Source: an uncultured delta proteobacterium
Lineage (GTDB): Bacteria > Desulfobacterota > Binatia > Binatales > Binataceae
Assembly (NCBI GenBank): GCA_963794325.1
Contig: CAWCDG010000003.1
Span: 352,001 to 416,000 of the forward strand
Direction of reading: 5' to 3'
Length of the DNA: 64,000 nt
The notes beneath the pieces are model-generated. The model did not search any database, was not told where the DNA came from, and saw only the letters and a list, made by a program, of their open reading frames with translations. Shown here piece after piece: positions 21,341 through 32,190 of the stretch. Position 1 is the first letter of the stretch, and every line of letters starts with the position of its first letter. Made by a program: the position numbers and the translations under genes.

Positions 21341-22543
21341 ATGCCCGCACCGCTGGACGGAATCAAAGTACTCGACCTGACCAAGCTCGCTCCGGGACCG
21401 TTCTGCACCATGATCCTGGCCGACCTTGGCGCTGAGGTGATCAGGATCGAGGAGCCGGGACCTCCCACCGGAAGGCGCGCGCAGCAAGCAGGCGCAGCAG
21501 GCACGCGCGCTGGCGCCAATAACTTCAACAGCTCGCCGCACAACGCACTTGCGCGCAACAAGAAATCGATCGGGATCAATCTCAAGAGCGGGGCGGGCAA
21601 GGAAGTTTACAGTCGGCTGGCACAGCGTGCCGACGTGATCGTCGAGGAGTATCGGCCGGGCGTCGCCAAGCGGCTCGGCATCGACTACGAGAAACTCGCG
21701 TCGCGCAATCCACGGCTGATTTATTGCGCCATCACCGGCTTTGGACAGACCGGTCCGTATCGCGACCTGGTCGGCCACGACATCAACTACATTGCCACTG
21801 CCGGCGTGCTCTCGATGTTTGGACGCCCCGGCCAACCACCGACGATTCCGCACAACGTCGTCGCCGACTATGCCGGTGGCGGGATGCAGGGCGCGATCGG
21901 AGTGCTCGCGGCGCTGGTCGCGCGCAACCAGACTGGGCGTGGGCAATACGTCGATATCTCGATGATGGACGGCAGTCTCGCGCTGCTGGCGCAGGCGTTC
22001 TCGACGTTTTTCGCCAACGGCAAACTGCCCAGGCGCGGCGAGACGATAAACGACGGCGGGATTCCGAATTACAACGTCTATCTGTGCAAGGACGACAAAT
22101 ACATTACGATCGCCGCGATCGAGCCGTGGTTCTTCGCCAATCTTTGCCGCGCGCTCGGCCGCGAGGATTTTATTCCGCACGAGTACGACTCGAGCAAGCG
22201 TCCGGAAATCGCGCGGGTGTTCACCGAGACCTTCAGAACCAAAACGCGCGACGAATGGTTCGAGATTCTGAGCAAGAGCGATATCTGCGTCGGACGAATG
22301 CTCACGCTCGACGAAGTGCCGAACGATCCGCAAGTACAAGCGCGCAACATGATCGTCGAAGTCGAAGGCAACGGCGGCCGGAAGTTCAAACAGGTCGGCA
22401 TATCGCCGAAGTTCTCGGATACGCCAGGATCGATCAGGTCGCTCGCGCCGCAACTCGGGCAGCATACCGACGAAATCCTTGGCGAGCTCGGCTACAGCAA
22501 GGAAGAGCTCGATCGCTGGCGCGAGTCCGGCGCCATCAAGTAG
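21341..22543 (+). CDS. Family III CoA-transferase (CaiB/BaiF/AMACR-like)
   Basis: LAPGPFCTMILADLGAEVI, RNKKSI, GHDINY, VADY active-site Asp. Confidence 0.95.
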   Translation: MPAPLDGIKVLDLTKLAPGPFCTMILADLGAEVIRIEEPGPPTGRRAQQAGAAGTRAGANNFNSSPHNALARNKKSIGINLKSGAGKEVYSRLAQRADVIVEEYRPGVAKRLGIDYEKLASRNPRLIYCAITGFGQTGPYRDLVGHDINYIATAGVLSMFGRPGQPPTIPHNVVADYAGGGMQGAIGVLAALVARNQTGRGQYVDISMMDGSLALLAQAFSTFFANGKLPRRGETINDGGIPNYNVYLCKDDKYITIAAIEPWFFANLCRALGREDFIPHEYDSSKRPEIARVFTETFRTKTRDEWFEILSKSDICVGRMLTLDEVPNDPQVQARNMIVEVEGNGGRKFKQVGISPKFSDTPGSIRSLAPQLGQHTDEILGELGYSKEELDRWRESGAIK

Positions 22544-24842: not shown

Positions 24843-26906
24843 ATGCGACGACCTACACTTTCGCTGCGCACCGATCAGTTCGAATACGTTCAGCTGATTC
24901 TGCTGGCGGTCACCGTCGGCATTCTCGCGGCGCTCGGAAATCTGGGCTTTCGCCAACTGATCGAATTTTTCTCGTGGCTGTTTCGCGCGGTCGAGTGGAA
25001 CGCGCTCGGAATCCAGCACGCCGGATGGCATCGAGCGCTGATCCCGGCGATCCTGCTGAGCGGCGGCGTCGCGATCCTGTTGCTTGACCGCATCTTCCCG
25101 GGAGACGTGCTCGGTTACGGCTTTCCGAATTTCCTCGAAATGGTCAATCTCGGCACCGCTCGACTCAAGCGCCGTTGGATCTTCGTCAAAGCCGCGGGAG
25201 CCGCGCTTTCATTGGGCGCGGGCGCGTCGGTCGGACGCGAAGGTCCGATCGCGCAGGTCGGGGGTGCGATCGGCTCGACTATCGCGCAGCTCAGAAAATT
25301 GTCGCCGGACCGTGCCAAGGTGCTGATCGCTGCAGGAGCGGGTGCCGGTATCGCTACAACCTTCAATGCGCCCATTGGCGGCCTGATGTTCGCGCAGGAA
25401 GTCGTCCTGCTCGGCCACACCGAAATCGCCAATCTCACATTGCTGATCATCGCCACCTTCACCGCGGTTATTACTTCGCGCGCGATTCTCGGCAATGCGG
25501 TCGTCTTCATCACGCCCGAATTCGTGCTGCGCAGCTACTGGGAGATGGCGACCTATGCGCTCATGGGCGCGGCGCTCGGCGCACTGGCCGCAGGCTACAT
25601 CCGATTCTTCAACGCCACCGAGGCATGGTTTCGCCGGCTCGACCTACCCGTCTGGGTGAAGCTCGAGGCGGGACTTGCCGTCGTCGGCGTAATTGCAATC
25701 TGGCTTCCGCAAAACTTGTCCGACGGGTATCCGGTGATCAACCGCGCGATGGCCGGCGAGTTCGGCATCGGAATGCTGGCAGCGATGGCCTGCGCGAAAA
25801 TCTTCGCCAGCAGCGTCTCGCTCGGATGCGGTGCTCCGGGAGGCTCCTTCGGACCGACGTTCTTCATCGGCACGATGGCCGGCGGCCTGTTCCAGCGCAT
25901 CTCTTCGCTGGTAATTCCTTCGCTGACCGGACCTCGCGGATCGTACGCGCTGGTAGGGCTCGGTGCGTTTCTGGCTGGTACCACGCACGCGCCACTGACT
26001 GCGCTGTTCCTGCTCTGGGAGATGACGCACAGCGATACGATTGCGTTGCCCTCGATGATCGCGACGATCACGGCTCTGGTCGTGGCTCGCGCGATCGAAA
26101 CCGAATCGATCGACGAGTTCCGTCTCGCGCGCGCGGGCAAAAAGCTGCAGATTGGCCGCGAGCGGTTGGCGCTCACGCTCATACCAGTCAGCGCCGTCGT
26201 AACCAAGAACGTGACGATGGTGTCTGAAAACACTTCGCTCACGGAAGTTCTGCGCACCGCGGGTGAGACCGCCCAATCGACGTTGCCGGTCGTCGATAGC
26301 GACGGTAACTTCGTCGGGACGATCGTGGTCCGTGATCTGTTGTCGATGATCGGCGGCGGTCAAGAGCTTGGCCCGCTCGTCAACGCATTCGACATTTGCA
26401 ATACGCATGCTCCCACGGTGCCGCTCGACGCGAACCTCGATGAGGCGAGCCAGCTGATGGAGCACGACGGCCTCGACGAGATTCCGGTCGTCGATCGCAC
26501 CACACTGCGGTTTCTTGGGCTCGTGACGGGCAGGCATATTGCGCAAGCGCTCAATCGCGTGTCGGTGTCACTCTCGACGCTCGCGACCCGCGACTCAAAC
26601 ATTTACTGGGCGACCGGCTATCGCGTGACGCGGCTCACGGTTCCCGCTACCGCGGCGGGGAAAACTGTGCGTCAGATCGATCCGCGCGCGCGATTCAGCG
26701 TCACGGTTCTGGCTGTTCAGGATGCGAACAATCCGGACGGCGGTTTCGCGCCGATCACTCCTGACCTCCCATTGAAAGCAGGCGACGAATTGATCGCGGC
26801 AGGACGTCCGCAAGATATTCGGCAATTCACAGCTGAATTGGACAGCGTGGAACCTGTCGGCGCGGCGCGCGCCTCATCTCAGGCGAGCGGATCGGGAAAG
26901 ACGTAG
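24843..26906 (+). CDS. ClC-family anion channel/antiporter with CBS pair and TrkA-C (RCK-C) domain
   Basis: GREGP, FNAPIGG.MFAQE, GG.FGP, HAPLTA motifs; two CBS repeats; C-terminal AGKTVRQIDPR...LKAGDELI. Confidence 0.92.
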   Translation: MRRPTLSLRTDQFEYVQLILLAVTVGILAALGNLGFRQLIEFFSWLFRAVEWNALGIQHAGWHRALIPAILLSGGVAILLLDRIFPGDVLGYGFPNFLEMVNLGTARLKRRWIFVKAAGAALSLGAGASVGREGPIAQVGGAIGSTIAQLRKLSPDRAKVLIAAGAGAGIATTFNAPIGGLMFAQEVVLLGHTEIANLTLLIIATFTAVITSRAILGNAVVFITPEFVLRSYWEMATYALMGAALGALAAGYIRFFNATEAWFRRLDLPVWVKLEAGLAVVGVIAIWLPQNLSDGYPVINRAMAGEFGIGMLAAMACAKIFASSVSLGCGAPGGSFGPTFFIGTMAGGLFQRISSLVIPSLTGPRGSYALVGLGAFLAGTTHAPLTALFLLWEMTHSDTIALPSMIATITALVVARAIETESIDEFRLARAGKKLQIGRERLALTLIPVSAVVTKNVTMVSENTSLTEVLRTAGETAQSTLPVVDSDGNFVGTIVVRDLLSMIGGGQELGPLVNAFDICNTHAPTVPLDANLDEASQLMEHDGLDEIPVVDRTTLRFLGLVTGRHIAQALNRVSVSLSTLATRDSNIYWATGYRVTRLTVPATAAGKTVRQIDPRARFSVTVLAVQDANNPDGGFAPITPDLPLKAGDELIAAGRPQDIRQFTAELDSVEPVGAARASSQASGSGKT

Positions 26907-27538
26907 GGACGCGCACGTCCCGCTCGAATTTCTGCGCACATTTCCTCGACCGTCTTTACGTCGTTGTCGAATTCAGTCGCGACGGTCATGAACCATTTTC
27001 CAGTGGCGAAATGAGCGTCGCTGCCACCGACCGCGGTCAGCCCGAGCTTGAGTGCCGCGTCCTCGGCTCGCCGATTCTCCTCGACCGAGTTCTGACCGTT
27101 CAAAACTTCGACCGCCCCAATCGCCGCGCCATGACGGCTCAGCAGCGCATCCAGCCGCACTCCGTAGCCCGAATCGCGAAATGGATGCGCCGGAATTGCG
27201 ACGCCGCCCTCGTGATGAATCACTTCAATCAGGCTGTCGCTCTTGAGCATCCGCGCCGTCAGATCGAATCGCCGCATCACTTCTTCGTTCACCCCGAACA
27301 GCAGCAGATGGCCGAGGTCGGTGTCGGCCTCAATCCCTCTGAAGATGGCGATTTGAAATCGTTCCGCGAGTTCCGCGTACAGTCGCTCGACGTCGGCATC
27401 GATCGGGAACAGCCGATGCTCTGTAAAACAGATGGCGCCGAGGCCCCGTCCCGAACTCTTCGCGAATTCAAGATACTGCTCGGGTGCGACGTTGGAGTCT
27501 GACGAGAGCCTCGTGTGGACGTGGAGGTCGGCGATCAT
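26879..27538 (-). CDS. PHP-domain phosphoesterase
   Basis: DLHVHT, FTEH, GIE, GHLL, AHPFR, GGSDAH metal-binding motifs. Confidence 0.9.
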   Translation of the reverse strand: MIADLHVHTRLSSDSNVAPEQYLEFAKSSGRGLGAICFTEHRLFPIDADVERLYAELAERFQIAIFRGIEADTDLGHLLLFGVNEEVMRRFDLTARMLKSDSLIEVIHHEGGVAIPAHPFRDSGYGVRLDALLSRHGAAIGAVEVLNGQNSVEENRRAEDAALKLGLTAVGGSDAHFATGKWFMTVATEFDNDVKTVEEMCAEIRAGRARPYVFPDPLA

Positions 27539-27548
27539 CAACAGGACT

Positions 27549-29069
27549 TTACGGCTCGGCGAAGAAGTTGTCGCGCACCTGAATGTGGTCCTCGATCGAG
27601 AAAATTCGCGCCACCAGGAAAATCTGGGTCTGCACCATCAGGCGATCAGCTTCGGTCGGCACGGTTCCCCATAAGATGATCGTGTCACCGTCCATTTTGA
27701 AGCGCACTGAGCTGTAGCCCTGCATGTCCAGCGCCCGGCGAAGCGCCATCTCCCGCGGCGTTGTGTGCGGCGGATCAGCCGGCTCACCCGGGACGGGCGG
27801 CGCAGGATTCGGCTCTGACGGCACCGATCCATAGTCGGGTCCGGTATCGCCGTCGGAAGGCTGCGGCTGCGACGAATGAAAAATCAGGTAGCCCATCAGG
27901 AAAAATCCGCCGACCACCAACGCCATCAGTCGCGCCGAATGCCGCCGGCGCCGCCGCTCGTGAAAAATCGGCCCCGGAAAATCGTGCGGCGCGGCAACGT
28001 CGTCGAGCATGATCGTCTGCGCCTCGGGCGTCGCGCCGCGATCTGTCCCCGACAATCGTCCGGTCACGTCGGCGGCGCAGAACGAGCAGAAGTTCGAATC
28101 CACCGGGATGCTTCGGCCGCATCGCGGGCACTCAGTGTCGATCGCGTTGCTCAGCATCGTCGGCGCCGACGCGTGCTGCTCTTTGGACTTGACGCCGCTC
28201 AGGGGCAGCTTGAGTTGTGGACGCGCGGCCCGGCCGGAGGAATTGCGCTGCGGCGCAGCCATCGGCGTCCCTGACTTGATCGCCATCAGCCGCTGTCTGA
28301 ATTCCACGGCGTCAGCAACGCGCAAAGCCACGTCGTACTTGAGGGCCTGGTCGACCACTTCGCATAGCGCGGGAGTGACCTCAGGACATAGCGATCGCAA
28401 CGGAGGAAAACTGAACGGCGGCTCGAGCGCGGGGTCGCGGCCCGACAGCGCATGATGCATCGTGGCGCCCAGTGCATACAGGTCCGATCGGAACTCGACC
28501 TTGCCGCGATATTGTTCCGGCGGCGCGTAGCCTTGCGTGCCGATCATCGTCGCGTTGCTGAGCGGCTGGAACAGTCGCGCGATTCCAAAGTCGATGAGCT
28601 TGACCTGCTCCGACGGCGTTAGCATCACGTTCGACGGCTTCAGGTCGCGATAGATCACCGGCGGTTCCAGGTTGTGCAGATACTCGAGCGTGTCGAGAAC
28701 CTGCAGCGCCACGTCGATAACCTCGCTCTCGGGAAGCTGGCCGCCGGCGCTCTGGAGTTTCTGCTCCAGCGTTATCCCGCTGATGTACTCCATGACGAGA
28801 TAGTGATGGTTCTCATCGCTGAAGCGATCGAACACGCGCGGGATATGTTCGTTGCTGAGTTGCGCCAGCATGTCGGCTTCGCGCTGAAACGCCGCGACCG
28901 CCTGCTTCTGAGTTTCGGGGCTGGTGAAAGTATCGACCATCTCGGCCAGCGCACACTCGCGCGCGGCGAGCCGCAAGTCCTCGGCCAGATAGACGAGCTT
29001 CATCCCGCCGCCGCCAAGCGGCTTCATCACGCGGTAACGTCCGCCAATGATCGTGTTGGGCGCAATCAT
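27549..29069 (-). CDS. Membrane-anchored Ser/Thr kinase with WNK-like Lys placement, Zn ribbon, TM and BON-like domain
   Basis: GGGGMK, CALAE, FQREA, YRDLKPSN, DFG, GTQGYAPPE, SDLYALG; CPRCG...CSFC; TM after an RRRRRH stretch; GDTIILWGTV...IEDHIQV BON-like tail. Confidence 0.93.
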   Translation of the reverse strand: MIAPNTIIGGRYRVMKPLGGGGMKLVYLAEDLRLAARECALAEMVDTFTSPETQKQAVAAFQREADMLAQLSNEHIPRVFDRFSDENHHYLVMEYISGITLEQKLQSAGGQLPESEVIDVALQVLDTLEYLHNLEPPVIYRDLKPSNVMLTPSEQVKLIDFGIARLFQPLSNATMIGTQGYAPPEQYRGKVEFRSDLYALGATMHHALSGRDPALEPPFSFPPLRSLCPEVTPALCEVVDQALKYDVALRVADAVEFRQRLMAIKSGTPMAAPQRNSSGRAARPQLKLPLSGVKSKEQHASAPTMLSNAIDTECPRCGRSIPVDSNFCSFCAADVTGRLSGTDRGATPEAQTIMLDDVAAPHDFPGPIFHERRRRRHSARLMALVVGGFFLMGYLIFHSSQPQPSDGDTGPDYGSVPSEPNPAPPVPGEPADPPHTTPREMALRRALDMQGYSSVRFKMDGDTIILWGTVPTEADRLMVQTQIFLVARIFSIEDHIQVRDNFFAEP

Positions 29070-29128
29070 GCCTAAAATCAGAATCTAACCATTATCTGAT
29101 TTTATAACAGCCCGCGCGCTTCCCGGAT

Positions 29129-29470
29129 TCATCGCGCCAGCATGTCTTCCCGGGGTGTTCCGGAGAAGGCCGCATTAGCCCCACATATTATATGGATGAG
29201 GATGCCAAATGGCGGCCCCATCCCGTACGCTATCGACACGAAAAAGAACCACATGATGCCCTTGAAGGGCTTGCCGCGGTAGATGTGCCCGACGCCCGGA
29301 ACGATGCTGAGCACGAGCGCGATCACCGGGTTGAATCCCGAACCTCTGTGCAACAGCGATAAACGTGTCGTCGGCGCGCCGCACGATTTGCAATAGCTCG
29401 CCTCGGCGACGACGATCGGCTGGCCGCATCGCGAACAGAACCTCGGTTTTTCGAAATCAGCGTCAGCCAC
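29129..29470 (-). CDS. Zinc-ribbon membrane protein (TM2-like)
   Basis: FCSRCG...YCKSCG; ALVLSIVPGVGHIYRG; GTG start overlapping the upstream stop. Confidence 0.8.
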   Translation of the reverse strand: MADADFEKPRFCSRCGQPIVVAEASYCKSCGAPTTRLSLLHRGSGFNPVIALVLSIVPGVGHIYRGKPFKGIMWFFFVSIAYGMGPPFGILIHIICGANAAFSGTPREDMLAR

Positions 29471-30794
29471 GGAAGACAAACTGCGCGTCGCCGAAGCGTA
29501 CAGCCTCGCCGTCGTTCACCTTGGTTGGCTCGGTCACGCGCCGATTACCGACGAACGTCCCGTTCTGACTGTTCAGGTCGCGCACCACAAAGGCGCCGTT
29601 GGAATTCTCGATACTCGCGTGATGCCTCGAGATCGAGGAATGGCTGACCACGATTTCATTGTCCAGCGCGCGCCCGATGTGGGTAACCGCGCCGGGACGC
29701 ACGGGATACGCCTGCCCGGACGCGTCGATCAGGCTCGGCCCATCAACTTTGGCATTTGCTCCCGCCAGCCGTGTCGCGATATGCGCAGGATTCACCGCGT
29801 CGGATGCGAGCGAGGCCTGCTGGCGCGCGGGCGACGACGACCCGCGCAGATGGAACTTCATTTCGTAACCGCCGATGTTGACCCGATCGCCGTCGTGCAG
29901 ATCTACAGTCTCGATTCGCTTGCCGTTGACGAACGTACCGTCCTGCACCGCAAGATTCCTGATGACGTAATCAGCGCCGCGCCGCTCGATTACCGCGTGC
30001 CGTTGCTGCACCGACGGGTCGCCGAACAAGCCGACCGGGTTTTCTTCGGCGCGCCCAATCGTCGCGCGCGCTCCTTCGATTCGGTACTGGCGTCCGCGCA
30101 AGCGTCCCTGCTCGACGGTGACCCACGCGGCCTTGGTCATCTCTTGTACCAGCCCGATGAACAGTCCGATCGCAAGGCCGGTTATCGCCTCGCCAAAAAA
30201 TCGCGACGCCAGCCCGCCGCCGACGACCGATCCGATCAAATCAAATGCGATTCCGCCGACCGCTCCGCCAACCAGTCCACCGACCGCTCCCTTGGGCACG
30301 TTTTCCATCGTGAGCGTTGCCAATCCCACACCGGCGCCAACCAGCGCGCCATCGATGGCCCATCCCAACAGTCTTGCGATTATGAGAACGACGATCGATC
30401 CCGAAACCAGCTCACCATTCGGACTGAACCCGACGCCGCCAACTTGAAGGACCAGGTTGAAGACGTAGTTCCCGAGGTAAGTGGAGAGCAGCGACAGCAG
30501 CGCGCAAATACCGAAGCCGCGGAGGAATCGACGCTTGGCCTCCGGCGTCACGCGAACCTCTGAGGTGTCCACCGCCGTGATGAACGCGCCGATCGCTCCG
30601 GCCGCGATCGCCGCCGAGATGTAGTACGCGATCAAATCCCCGGTCGTCTGCGCCTCGCCCAGATGCGAATTGTGCGAAGCCAGTTCGACCGGGAGCCATC
30701 CGATCGCGCCACCCACCAGGCCCGCGAGAGCCTTGAAGGTCAATTCGCGCCGGTTCAGAGAATCGCTTTTCAGTAGAGCTAGAGGTGAGTCCAC
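29463..30794 (-). CDS. Multi-TM protein with two C-terminal FHA domains
   Basis: Gly-rich TM helices; IGR...RHA...GTFVNG and IGR...ISRHHA...SQNGTFV. Confidence 0.9.
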   Translation of the reverse strand: MDSPLALLKSDSLNRRELTFKALAGLVGGAIGWLPVELASHNSHLGEAQTTGDLIAYYISAAIAAGAIGAFITAVDTSEVRVTPEAKRRFLRGFGICALLSLLSTYLGNYVFNLVLQVGGVGFSPNGELVSGSIVVLIIARLLGWAIDGALVGAGVGLATLTMENVPKGAVGGLVGGAVGGIAFDLIGSVVGGGLASRFFGEAITGLAIGLFIGLVQEMTKAAWVTVEQGRLRGRQYRIEGARATIGRAEENPVGLFGDPSVQQRHAVIERRGADYVIRNLAVQDGTFVNGKRIETVDLHDGDRVNIGGYEMKFHLRGSSSPARQQASLASDAVNPAHIATRLAGANAKVDGPSLIDASGQAYPVRPGAVTHIGRALDNEIVVSHSSISRHHASIENSNGAFVVRDLNSQNGTFVGNRRVTEPTKVNDGEAVRFGDAQFVFRG

Positions 30795-30948
30795 GACGCC
30801 CTCGGCAGCAGCATCCAGGTGAAACAGTTACCAATATAATAGCCCGCATCCGCGCGCTGGAAAACGCCGTCGCTGAACAGCATGCAATCAGCGGGCTGCG
30901 GGGCTCATATTGCTCCCCCCGAACAAAAACAGGCATCATCGCGAGGCG

Positions 30949-32190
30949 ATGAGCATCGAAAATCTGGTTACTGAAAAGTTCGGCCCGCTGCAGGGCGTGA
31001 AGATCATCTCGACCGGAACCCTGATTGCGCAGCCGTTCGCCGCCGAACTGGCCGCCGAGATGGGCGCGGAGGTGATCCAAATCGAGCGGCCCGGAATTGG
31101 CGACGTCGGATGGCGCAATATCGGCATCCGGCTCAAGACCAGGGACGGCAAGTCCGCCGTTGCGACGACCTGGATCCAGGAACGCCGCAACGTGTTTTGC
31201 ATCTCGCTCGATCTGTCGAAGCCGCGCGGCCGCGAAATCTTTTTGAAACTCGTCGCGCGTGCCGACATCTGGATGGAAAGTTCGAGGCCGGGCACCTATC
31301 CGAAATGGAAGCTTGACGACGCGTCGGTTTGGAAGGTCAATCCGAAACTGGTGATCACTCACGTCTCGGGATTCGGACAAAGCGGCGATCCTGACTACGT
31401 CCATCGCGCGTCGTACGACGTGGTTGGGCAGGCGGTCGGCGGCACGATGATCCAGACCGGTTTTCCCGATCCGATTCCGCCGACGCGCGCCGCGCCGTGG
31501 ACCGGCGACTATATTACCGCGCTTTTCACGATGTGGTCGTCGCTCGCCGCGCTGACGTACGCGCGCACCACCGGCAAGGGTCAGTCGATCGACGTCGCGC
31601 AGTACGAAGCGATTCATAAAACGCTGGGCGGAACGATGGTTGAGTACTTCCAGAATGGCGTCGTGCGCGAGCGATCGGGCAATCGCGCGCAGGGCTTTCA
31701 GCCACTCGATTCTTTTCAGGCAATTGACGGATGGGTCGTGATGGGCGCGATAGGCGACGTGTACGCGCGGATGCTCGGCGTGATCGGGCTGGATCAGACC
31801 GACCCGAAATGGGAAACGGCGCGCACTCAGCTCGAATCGATCGAAGGGATCGAATTCGACGCGATCCTGCGCGGATGGATTTCCGAGCGCACTGTGAAAG
31901 ACGTCGTGACCGCGATGGCAGCCGCCAACGTGCCGTGCTCGCCGATTATGACGAGCAAGGACATCGCCGAGGACCCGCAATACCGCGCGCGCGGAATGCA
32001 CGTCGAATGGGAAGACGGGCAAGTGGGCAAGGTGAAGGGCATCGGCGTCGCGCCAAAGTTCTCGCGCACCCCGGGAAAAATCGTACGCGGATCCGTACCG
32101 CTCGGCCACGACAACGATCGCATCTATCGCGAGATGCTCGGCGTCAGCGCGGACGAACTCGAATCGCTCCGCCGCGAAAAGGTGATCTAA
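30949..32190 (+). CDS. Family III CoA-transferase (CaiB/BaiF-like)
   Basis: FGPLQGVKI...IAQPFAAE...GAEVIQIE, SGFGQSG, GDY. Confidence 0.92.
   Translation: MSIENLVTEKFGPLQGVKIISTGTLIAQPFAAELAAEMGAEVIQIERPGIGDVGWRNIGIRLKTRDGKSAVATTWIQERRNVFCISLDLSKPRGREIFLKLVARADIWMESSRPGTYPKWKLDDASVWKVNPKLVITHVSGFGQSGDPDYVHRASYDVVGQAVGGTMIQTGFPDPIPPTRAAPWTGDYITALFTMWSSLAALTYARTTGKGQSIDVAQYEAIHKTLGGTMVEYFQNGVVRERSGNRAQGFQPLDSFQAIDGWVVMGAIGDVYARMLGVIGLDQTDPKWETARTQLESIEGIEFDAILRGWISERTVKDVVTAMAAANVPCSPIMTSKDIAEDPQYRARGMHVEWEDGQVGKVKGIGVAPKFSRTPGKIVRGSVPLGHDNDRIYREMLGVSADELESLRREKVI

Follow-up and report, generated by a model that had tools for sequence, protein, structure and literature searches.

A probable three-gene membrane kinase module with a glycine-loop lysine in uncultured Binataceae

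We analysed a 64,000-nucleotide stretch of DNA from an uncultured Binataceae bacterium (assembly GCA_963794325.1, contig CAWCDG010000003.1, positions 352,001 to 416,000; hereafter the window), in which four co-oriented genes encode a membrane protein with FHA domains, a small Zn-ribbon membrane protein, a membrane-anchored Hanks kinase and a PHP-family phosphoesterase, and run towards a convergent gene for a ClC-family protein (Table 1). A previous, sequence-only reading of the window had described this cluster as a complete phospho-signalling operon, with reader, writer and candidate eraser, converging on the ClC. According to our analysis, the functional unit is probably a three-gene Binataceae membrane module formed by the FHA, Zn-ribbon and kinase genes rather than a five-part circuit: the FHA reader, the kinase writer and the Zn-ribbon protein stay together as a unit in every locus that we compared, but neither the eraser nor the ClC target could be retained. 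Bacteria often pair a kinase with FHA proteins in this way, so that the operon in itself is nothing out of the ordinary; the unusual part is the kinase, and what we find most interesting is the clade to which it belongs, in which the lysine normally found in strand beta3 is replaced by one in the glycine loop.

The case for a unit of three genes comes from the neighbourhoods of related kinases. All locus counts given here refer to the best 80 of 365 genome relatives, all of them Binataceae-type metagenome-assembled genomes, with kinase identities of 51-92%. The triad, in which adjacent, co-oriented FHA and Zn-ribbon genes precede the kinase gene, was found in 80 of the 80 loci, and the gap between the Zn-ribbon and kinase genes was no more than 150 bp in 78. 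The junction with the PHP gene could be counted in the 74 loci with at least 1 kb downstream of the kinase, and in 63 of these the gene lies co-oriented within 150 bp behind the kinase (11 breaks), while the ClC gene is convergent next to PHP in 56 of 67 loci (11 breaks). As controls for general gene order we used two further junctions, that of an unrelated hydrolase gene next to the ClC, which is kept in 61 of 65 loci (4 breaks), and that of the CoA-transferase gene upstream, which is kept in 44 of 68 (24 breaks). With no break in 80 loci, only the triad exceeds background synteny. The comparison across relatives, which had been proposed as a check on the whole cluster, thus upholds the linkage of the triad, but not an unbroken link to PHP or a link to the ClC above background.

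The kinase is built, in this order, from a kinase domain (Pfam Pkinase, 1.4e-35), a linker, a zinc ribbon, one membrane helix, a Pro-rich spacer and a BON-like domain, and its closest relatives in the PDB, among the best 60 of 701 matches, are StkP, PknB, PknA and PknG. When the domain is aligned to pneumococcal StkP, A42 faces the lysine of the VAVK motif, and K24 takes the place of the third Gly of GxGxxG. Neither residue varies, be it among the 26 aligned homologues or across the 80 loci, so that the beta3 lysine is absent throughout, while the HRD-Asp, the catalytic-loop Asn, the DFG-Asp and the alphaC Glu are all kept. More specifically, E64, D142, K144, N147, D160, T174 and T178 are unchanged in 80/80 loci, the DFG motif that contains D160 is likewise present in every one, and the linker residue T304 is conserved in 79 of them.

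This is the placement of the lysine that is used by the eukaryotic WNK kinases. In the accessible text of PMC1821047, the working lysine of WNK1, K233, is assigned to the position of G55 in PKA, which is the same place as K24, and the WNKs are called the sole functional protein-kinase family without the beta3 lysine. The earlier label of a WNK-like kinase is therefore apt for the placement of the lysine, which is fixed at K24/A42 in 80/80 loci, but does not extend to WNK ancestry, to the DLG motif or to accessory domains. Like the WNKs, the kinase has a small residue at the beta3 lysine place, a Lys at the third-Gly place and the remaining catalytic residues kept. Unlike them, it has no WNK among its best 60 of 701 PDB matches, its clade has canonical bacterial kinases, one branch apart, as closest relatives by identity, and Pfam finds in it none of the WNK accessory domains. 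WNKs carry a Cys at the beta3 place and a DLG motif, whereas the replacement here is Ala and the motif DFG.

To see how far this arrangement extends, the kinase domain was searched against 1.84 billion cluster representatives and the best 150 matches were compared. Lys/Ala at both motif places was found in 61 of these 150 best cluster representatives (P0241-P0349); the nearest canonical relatives are bacterial, with Gly/Lys at both places within the same GGGGM...VYL / CA.KEM context. In a maximum-likelihood tree of 123 domains, comprising the window kinase and the 122 representatives with a full-length domain (28 partial ones were left out), all 51 lysine-shifted rows fall on one side of a single branch, with an ultrafast bootstrap of 100 and a Shimodaira-Hasegawa-like approximate likelihood ratio (SH-aLRT) support of 100, and the same branch retains an SH-aLRT of 98.3 when the 13 columns around both motifs are removed. 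Because the shifted rows thus form one clade, with this support both with and without the motif columns, we regard the layout as a selected, inherited state and not as decay. As judged from the tree, the lysine shift appears as a single inherited event within a bacterial lineage and not as WNK ancestry. The domains at the C-terminal end of the clade members are diverse, including TPR, Sel1, FGE-sulfatase, SPOR, BamE, PQQ, NfeD, TIR and BON+PDZ, and a Pfam zinc ribbon is present in 18 of the 59 lysine-shifted representatives scanned. The shift is not a peculiarity of the Binataceae. One representative, P0241 (494 aa), reads a Zn-ribbon protein and a kinase as a single open reading frame (ORF), which is possibly a frameshift or a gene-calling artefact.

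Seven bacterial families without the beta3 lysine (ActPs1-3, DLHK, GLW, CP1 and DYD) are listed in the accessible parts of a 2025 review and of a preprint presenting an atlas of bacterial kinases; as described there, none combines intact HRD and DFG motifs with a glycine-loop lysine and a membrane anchor. A bacterial family in which the lysine has shifted into the glycine loop was not found in the literature, with the reservation that the supplementary family tables of the preprint may list one. We lean slightly towards the view that the clade represents a widespread and so far undescribed family of active bacterial kinases whose lysine is placed as in WNKs. If its members are active, the shifted lysine would have been invented twice, independently, and the clade would offer a simple bacterial system in which to probe the purpose of this arrangement; it also warns against the automatic use of pseudokinase labels.

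The partner proteins of the kinase are both predicted membrane proteins. In the FHA protein, whose homologues in the loci are 49-93% identical, Pfam detects FHA in two stretches (7e-36) and Yop-YscD_cpl (3.2e-24). Its N-terminal membrane region has hydropathy segments at residues 54-72, 129-147, 173-196 and 199-217 and many invariant Gly, Trp and Pro positions, and residues 1-225 match no Pfam family at E up to 10. An Atlas search with a homologue of this region gave leads that were all below 0.9, consisting of hypothetical membrane proteins, one cluster of which has FHA on 17% of its members. The protein had been described as a dual-FHA protein, and two FHA domains, both on the cytoplasmic side, are indeed present, but just the second keeps all phosphothreonine-binding residues. 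FHA1 retains G247, R248 and H266, whereas Q263, A282 and a D/E replace S389, S409 and N411 of FHA2 at three phosphate-contact places. In FHA2, G374, R375, S389, R390, H392, S409 and N411 are invariant in 32 of 32 sequences, and T413 is kept in at least 90%. Many homologues (P0122-P0211) are annotated with N-termini that are 27-60 aa longer (470-504 aa in all), while the ORF in the window is limited to 443 aa, and start-codon calls are inconsistent across the family.

The small protein has an N-terminal Cys4 ribbon (C12, C15, C27 and C30, invariant in 28/28) followed by a two-helix hairpin, with helices at residues 45-63 and 74-95 by hydropathy. Its Pfam scores are close to the respective cut-offs or below them (TM2, 19.7 vs 27.9 bits; DUF6677, 20 vs 24.3; Zn_ribbon_NUD, 24.9 vs 24.8), and a TM2-like motif, PG.G..Y.G...W.F, is conserved. 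As the cytoplasmic part of this protein contains no invariant Thr, a threonine there was rejected as a phospho-site. A search for longer homologues returned one of 230 candidates, P0391 (214 aa), in which an FHA domain runs into the beginning of the Zn-ribbon protein; it covers 30% of the query and probably arose by a frameshift across the overlapping genes, or possibly through gene calling, and not as a true fusion. The fused forms, P0391 and P0241, were set aside as Rosetta-stone evidence, being too thin.

In the kinase, the zinc ribbon reaches 21.7 bits with Pfam Zn_Ribbon_1, below the cut-off of 25, and a run of five arginines (RRRRR) precedes the membrane helix. The similarity of this ribbon to that of the small protein, which had been pointed out before, amounts to 9 of 21 identical residues, but the CxxC...CxxC motif is common both in the kinase clade and among canonical relatives, occurring in 26/50 lysine-shifted kinases vs 31/69 canonical ones; on these counts, a zinc ribbon does not serve to distinguish the lysine-shifted clade, and the idea was rejected.

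Beyond the Pro-rich spacer, about 65 conserved residues make up the C-terminal end of the kinase, which had been read as an extracytoplasmic BON-like domain. Here the fold agrees, but the Pfam models do not reach their cut-offs: BON (PF04972) scores 13.3 bits vs 27 (E 0.1), and the YscD BON-like domain 14 bits vs 24. A structural model of the tail, made from 37 sequences, has a mean predicted local distance difference test (pLDDT) score of 76 and the order helix-strand-strand-helix-strand. In a fold search of the PDB with this model, the first three ranks are OsmY (8rjx; E 3.2e-3, TMq 0.64), DolP (6xmv) and CdsD (4qo6), with E between 3e-3 and 1e-2 for these three and no match at 1e-3 or better; BonA, at rank 40, and SpoIIIAH come after these. 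The predicted fold, alpha-beta-beta-alpha-beta, and the predicted periplasmic location are those of OsmY, DolP, BonA and the ring-building domains of YscD/CdsD. In contrast to these, the domain is present here in a single copy, is fused to a kinase and remains below the Pfam cut-off, and going by the model the term BON-like would be a fair description at the fold level only. Another lysine-shifted kinase, P0336, has a clear Pfam BON domain (1.3e-12) together with PDZ.

From these features one can propose how the module might work. The kinase would be active, with K24 serving as the ATP-phosphate lysine, and its BON-like domain would report some state of the envelope or periplasm. It would autophosphorylate on the invariant activation-loop residues T174/T178, and perhaps also on T304, which lies in the linker next to the membrane. 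A phosphothreonine of the kinase would then serve as the docking site for FHA2 of the polytopic protein, and this docking could recruit the Gly-rich membrane domain or regulate its activity, with the Zn-ribbon/two-helix protein as a putative membrane adaptor of the complex that, owing to the gene overlap, would be made in step with the FHA protein. Several points weigh against this proposal. Since all 80 loci come from one family, the conservation of the triad partly reflects shared ancestry. We infer kinase activity, FHA binding and co-transcription from sequence. Lacking the beta3 lysine, a kinase such as this one might be a pseudokinase. Finally, the tight spacing of the PHP gene, its full metal site and the lack of a PP2C among the window ORFs scanned leave room for the PHP protein as the phosphatase of the module. 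That the module senses osmotic or envelope conditions is speculation, drawn from the BON-like fold and from the analogy to eukaryotic WNKs.

The PHP protein, predicted to be cytosolic, matches Pfam PHP and PHP_C, and its metal-ligand set is complete, with H6, H8, D14, E40, H41, E70, H77, H118, D174 and H176 invariant in 36/36. Its structure model has a pLDDT of 93. The solved structures that come closest to it in sequence, in profile and in fold are those of TM0559, RNase AM, BVU_3505, PsfC, the pAp phosphatase Cv1693, PolIII PHP domains, EndoQ and histidinol phosphatases. It resembles TM0559 (2anu), RNase AM/TrpH (7ug9, 9etk) and Cv1693 (2yb1), which provide the best fold and sequence matches, and has the size of TM0559 (~220 aa), but it differs from these three in that identity is just 17-24% and the gene here usually follows a kinase gene. 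To our knowledge, the tyrosine-specific CpsB/YwqE are the sole protein phosphatases of the PHP type. They act on the phosphotyrosine of BY-kinases, and there is no BY-kinase present here for a phosphatase of this type to pair with. In the fold search, Cps4B (CpsB)/YwqE (2wjd, 3qy6) appear at ranks 46-47 (E 4.5e-3 to 5.5e-3, TMq 0.48-0.50), behind 43 matches at E 1e-3 or better, and neither matches the PHP protein by sequence or profile at E up to 1; the feature that they share with it is the PHP fold. With relatives that are nucleotide and RNA phosphoesterases, with CpsB/YwqE this far down the ranking and with a kinase link that breaks, the role of eraser is not borne out.

Where the PHP gene is present, its median distance to the kinase gene is 10 bp, with 4-bp overlaps in 4 loci. 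Elsewhere it is spaced 226-281 bp from the kinase (L070, L071, L073), or separated from it by a minus-strand DsbA-like gene (L069), by two minus-strand genes (L035) or by a DUF1329 gene (L049); in L076 it has moved and become inverted jointly with the ClC and hydrolase genes. In L038 it is missing and a Gp49-like gene stands where it would be, and L043, L075 and L078 lack it as well while retaining the triad. This pattern suggests that the PHP protein is an accessory of the unit, frequent but dispensable, and usually co-transcribed behind the kinase. Its relatives make a small molecule or a nucleic acid the most likely substrate of this phosphoesterase, and position alone would point to a phosphoprotein.

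The ClC protein has a Voltage_CLC domain (2.7e-79), two CBS stretches and, after the CBS pair, a C-terminal TrkA_C domain, while all NCBIfam ClC models stay below their cut-offs. Its gene and the PHP gene do share 28 bp at their 3' ends, as the ORF coordinates confirm (stops at 26906 and 26879, respectively), but the two are convergent and thus cannot be co-transcribed, and their adjacency is within the background given by the hydrolase control. The picture of a cluster converging on the ClC as its target is therefore not sustained, and the sequence-only reading was right to caution that the ClC link may be a positional coincidence. The ClC is a syntenic neighbour of the unit, and membership in it is not supported; the story of a WNK-like kinase beside a chloride channel draws support from nothing beyond synteny within one family. 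As to the protein itself, residues 91-95 read GYGFP, conserved in 61 of 64 locus matches, where chloride-selective ClCs carry GSGIP. The GREGP motif is kept in 64/65, and the stretch after EMT (residues 393-398) is variable, often without the Tyr that acts as a chloride ligand in ClC proteins.

How, then, do other interpretations compare with a three-gene module around an active kinase? It is unlikely that the kinase is a pseudokinase or scaffold, in which loss of the beta3 lysine ended catalysis and signalling proceeds by conformation or binding only. The change of this lysine to Ala in 80/80 loci would fit such a role, and the accessible texts of the bSTK atlas preprint and of PMC12599244 currently class the bacterial families without it as pseudokinases; yet the HRD-Asp, the catalytic-loop Asn, the DFG-Asp, the alphaC Glu and both activation-loop Thr are invariant, unlike in the bacterial pseudokinase families as described there, an invariant Lys stands at the exact place of the WNK working lysine, and a canonical phosphothreonine reader is encoded alongside in all loci. 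Anti-phage defence of the PD-T4-6 or MADS kinase kind, to which the PADLOC models PD-T4-6 and mad6 (best 3.4e-59) and, well below their cut-offs, the NCBIfam models MAD6 and PglW might direct one, was rejected as extremely unlikely: these matches span the generic kinase domain only, no PADLOC model matches the FHA, Zn-ribbon or ClC protein, and the locus is stable, syntenic and chromosomal in 80 genomes amid metabolic genes, which defence islands, not being stably syntenic across genomes, are not.

We also consider quite unlikely the full circuit, in which the FHA protein reads, the kinase writes and the PHP protein erases, with envelope or osmotic sensing as the input and the ClC as the target. 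It gains from the close, co-oriented position of PHP in 63/74 loci, from its intact metal ligands, and from the finding of no PP2C or SpoIIE among the five cluster genes, the two flanking genes or the other 47 ORFs in the window that reach 100 aa. The ClC adjoins the cluster in 58/67 loci and has regulatory CBS and TrkA_C domains, and the kinase combines a BON-like fold with the WNK-type placement of its lysine; WNKs are chloride-sensitive regulators of ion transport. These points are outweighed, in our view, by a PHP protein that is closest to TM0559, RNase AM and the pAp phosphatase and not to CpsB/YwqE, by its loss from four loci that keep the triad (L038, L043, L075, L078), the opposite-strand genes that part it from the kinase in L035 and L069 and its joint move with the ClC in L076, by a ClC adjacency that equals background synteny between convergent genes, and by a kinase that is unrelated to WNKs beyond the lysine shift and has DFG where these have DLG. 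The boldest version, a WNK analogue whose shifted lysine responds to anions or ionic strength, which receives envelope input through the BON-like domain, is read by FHA, is reset by PHP and controls the ClC, seems to us very unlikely indeed.

The known system closest to the three-gene module is the mycobacterial PknB / FhaA / FhaB(FipA) / PstP cluster, a module of a Hanks kinase and FHA proteins to which PpkA-Fha is similar in type. As in the PknB-FhaA/FhaB cluster, a membrane Hanks kinase with a predicted extracytoplasmic sensor domain stands adjacent to FHA readers, one of them membrane-anchored, and the FHA domains here match NCBIfam FhaB/FipA at 102.7 bits, below the cut-off of 125. The module differs in several respects. 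Its putative sensor is BON-like and not PASTA, its lysine lies in the glycine loop, and the cluster includes neither a PP2C phosphatase nor cell-wall genes. Of the two FHA domains in its polytopic FHA protein, one is degenerate and the other canonical, and the Zn-ribbon/two-helix protein is an obligatory third member.

Table 1 Features of the kinase cluster and its neighbours (window coordinates)
Feature	Position	Strand	Basis or remark
Divergent intergenic region upstream of FHA gene	30795..30909	.	Likely promoter region of the unit
FHA protein gene	29463..30794	-	ORF, 443 aa
FHA protein, N-terminal membrane region (residues ~19-217)	30144..30740	-	Gly-rich, at least 4 hydrophobic helices
FHA domain 1 (residues ~229-315)	29850..30110	-	Degenerate, YscD-like; best PF16697 stretch
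FHA domain 2 (residues ~372-435)	29490..29681	-	Canonical phosphothreonine-binding set; best FHA stretch
Zn-ribbon protein gene	29129..29470 (GTG, 113 aa) or 29129..29479 (TTG, 116 aa)	-	ORF and start context
Kinase gene	27549..29069	-	ORF, 506 aa
K24 codon	28998..29000	-	Lys at third-Gly place of glycine loop (GGGGMK)
A42 codon	28944..28946	-	Ala at beta3 (VAIK) lysine place
Kinase zinc ribbon (C314, C317, C328, C331)	28077..28130	-	Four Cys invariant in 80/80 loci
Kinase membrane helix, single (residues 379-397)	27879..27935	-	Hydropathy peak 1.94
Kinase C-terminal BON-like domain (residues ~438-498)	27576..27758	-	Model and fold search; predicted extracytoplasmic
PHP gene	26879..27538	-	ORF, 219 aa; ATG at 27538
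ClC gene	24843..26906	+	ORF; convergent to PHP gene

The co-orientation of the four minus-strand genes, with an overlap, a 59-bp gap and a 10-bp gap, had been noted correctly and is confirmed by the ORF coordinates. The overlap depends on the start codon of the Zn-ribbon gene: from the GTG start it shares 8 nt with the end of the FHA gene (GTGGCTGA), and from the TTG start 17 nt. Relatives favour the shorter form, as 72 of 80 loci show an overlap between these genes, with a median of 8 nt. The 59-bp gap (29070..29128) separates the Zn-ribbon and kinase genes, and the 10-bp gap lies between the kinase stop and the PHP ATG. None of the five proteins reaches the curated cut-off of an NCBIfam model, and none is thus a named equivalog; homologues of the window genes are named Candidatus Binatus or Binataceae.

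In the divergent intergenic region, a sigma-70-like site is found at 30863..30836 on the minus strand (TTTCCA-16-TATTAT), but as one such site was found where shuffled sequences led us to expect 1.0, it is by itself no evidence of a promoter. The scan for promoters and terminators gave the same counts as chance, and a search for RNA elements yielded no match of relevance at E up to 0.1. The 59-bp spacer is AT-rich within a genome of 61% G+C (~61% in the window) and measures 57-64 bp in close relatives, while the corresponding spacer is just 1-20 bp in many distant ones; it could contain an internal promoter specific to the Binatus group.

The junctions kinase/PHP/ClC stand out as hot spots for insertions. 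Among the inserted or neighbouring genes are the Gp49-like gene mentioned above, of the toxin-antitoxin type, at the place where PHP would be (L038:5290-5640), a weak HEPN AbiU2-like ORF (L072:9045-9635) and an adenylate cyclase of 1215 aa that carries TPR repeats and an AAA domain in addition to a double zinc ribbon (L021:12420-16067). In L025, L037, L066 and L071 the kinase or its neighbours match in pieces only, apparently through assembly frameshifts, and because of these fragmentary matches we do not trust the spacings in these four loci. The surroundings of the cluster in the window are metabolic, and comprise two family III CoA-transferase genes (21341..22543 and 30910..32190), an LLM-type oxidoreductase, acyl-CoA dehydrogenases and hydrolases.

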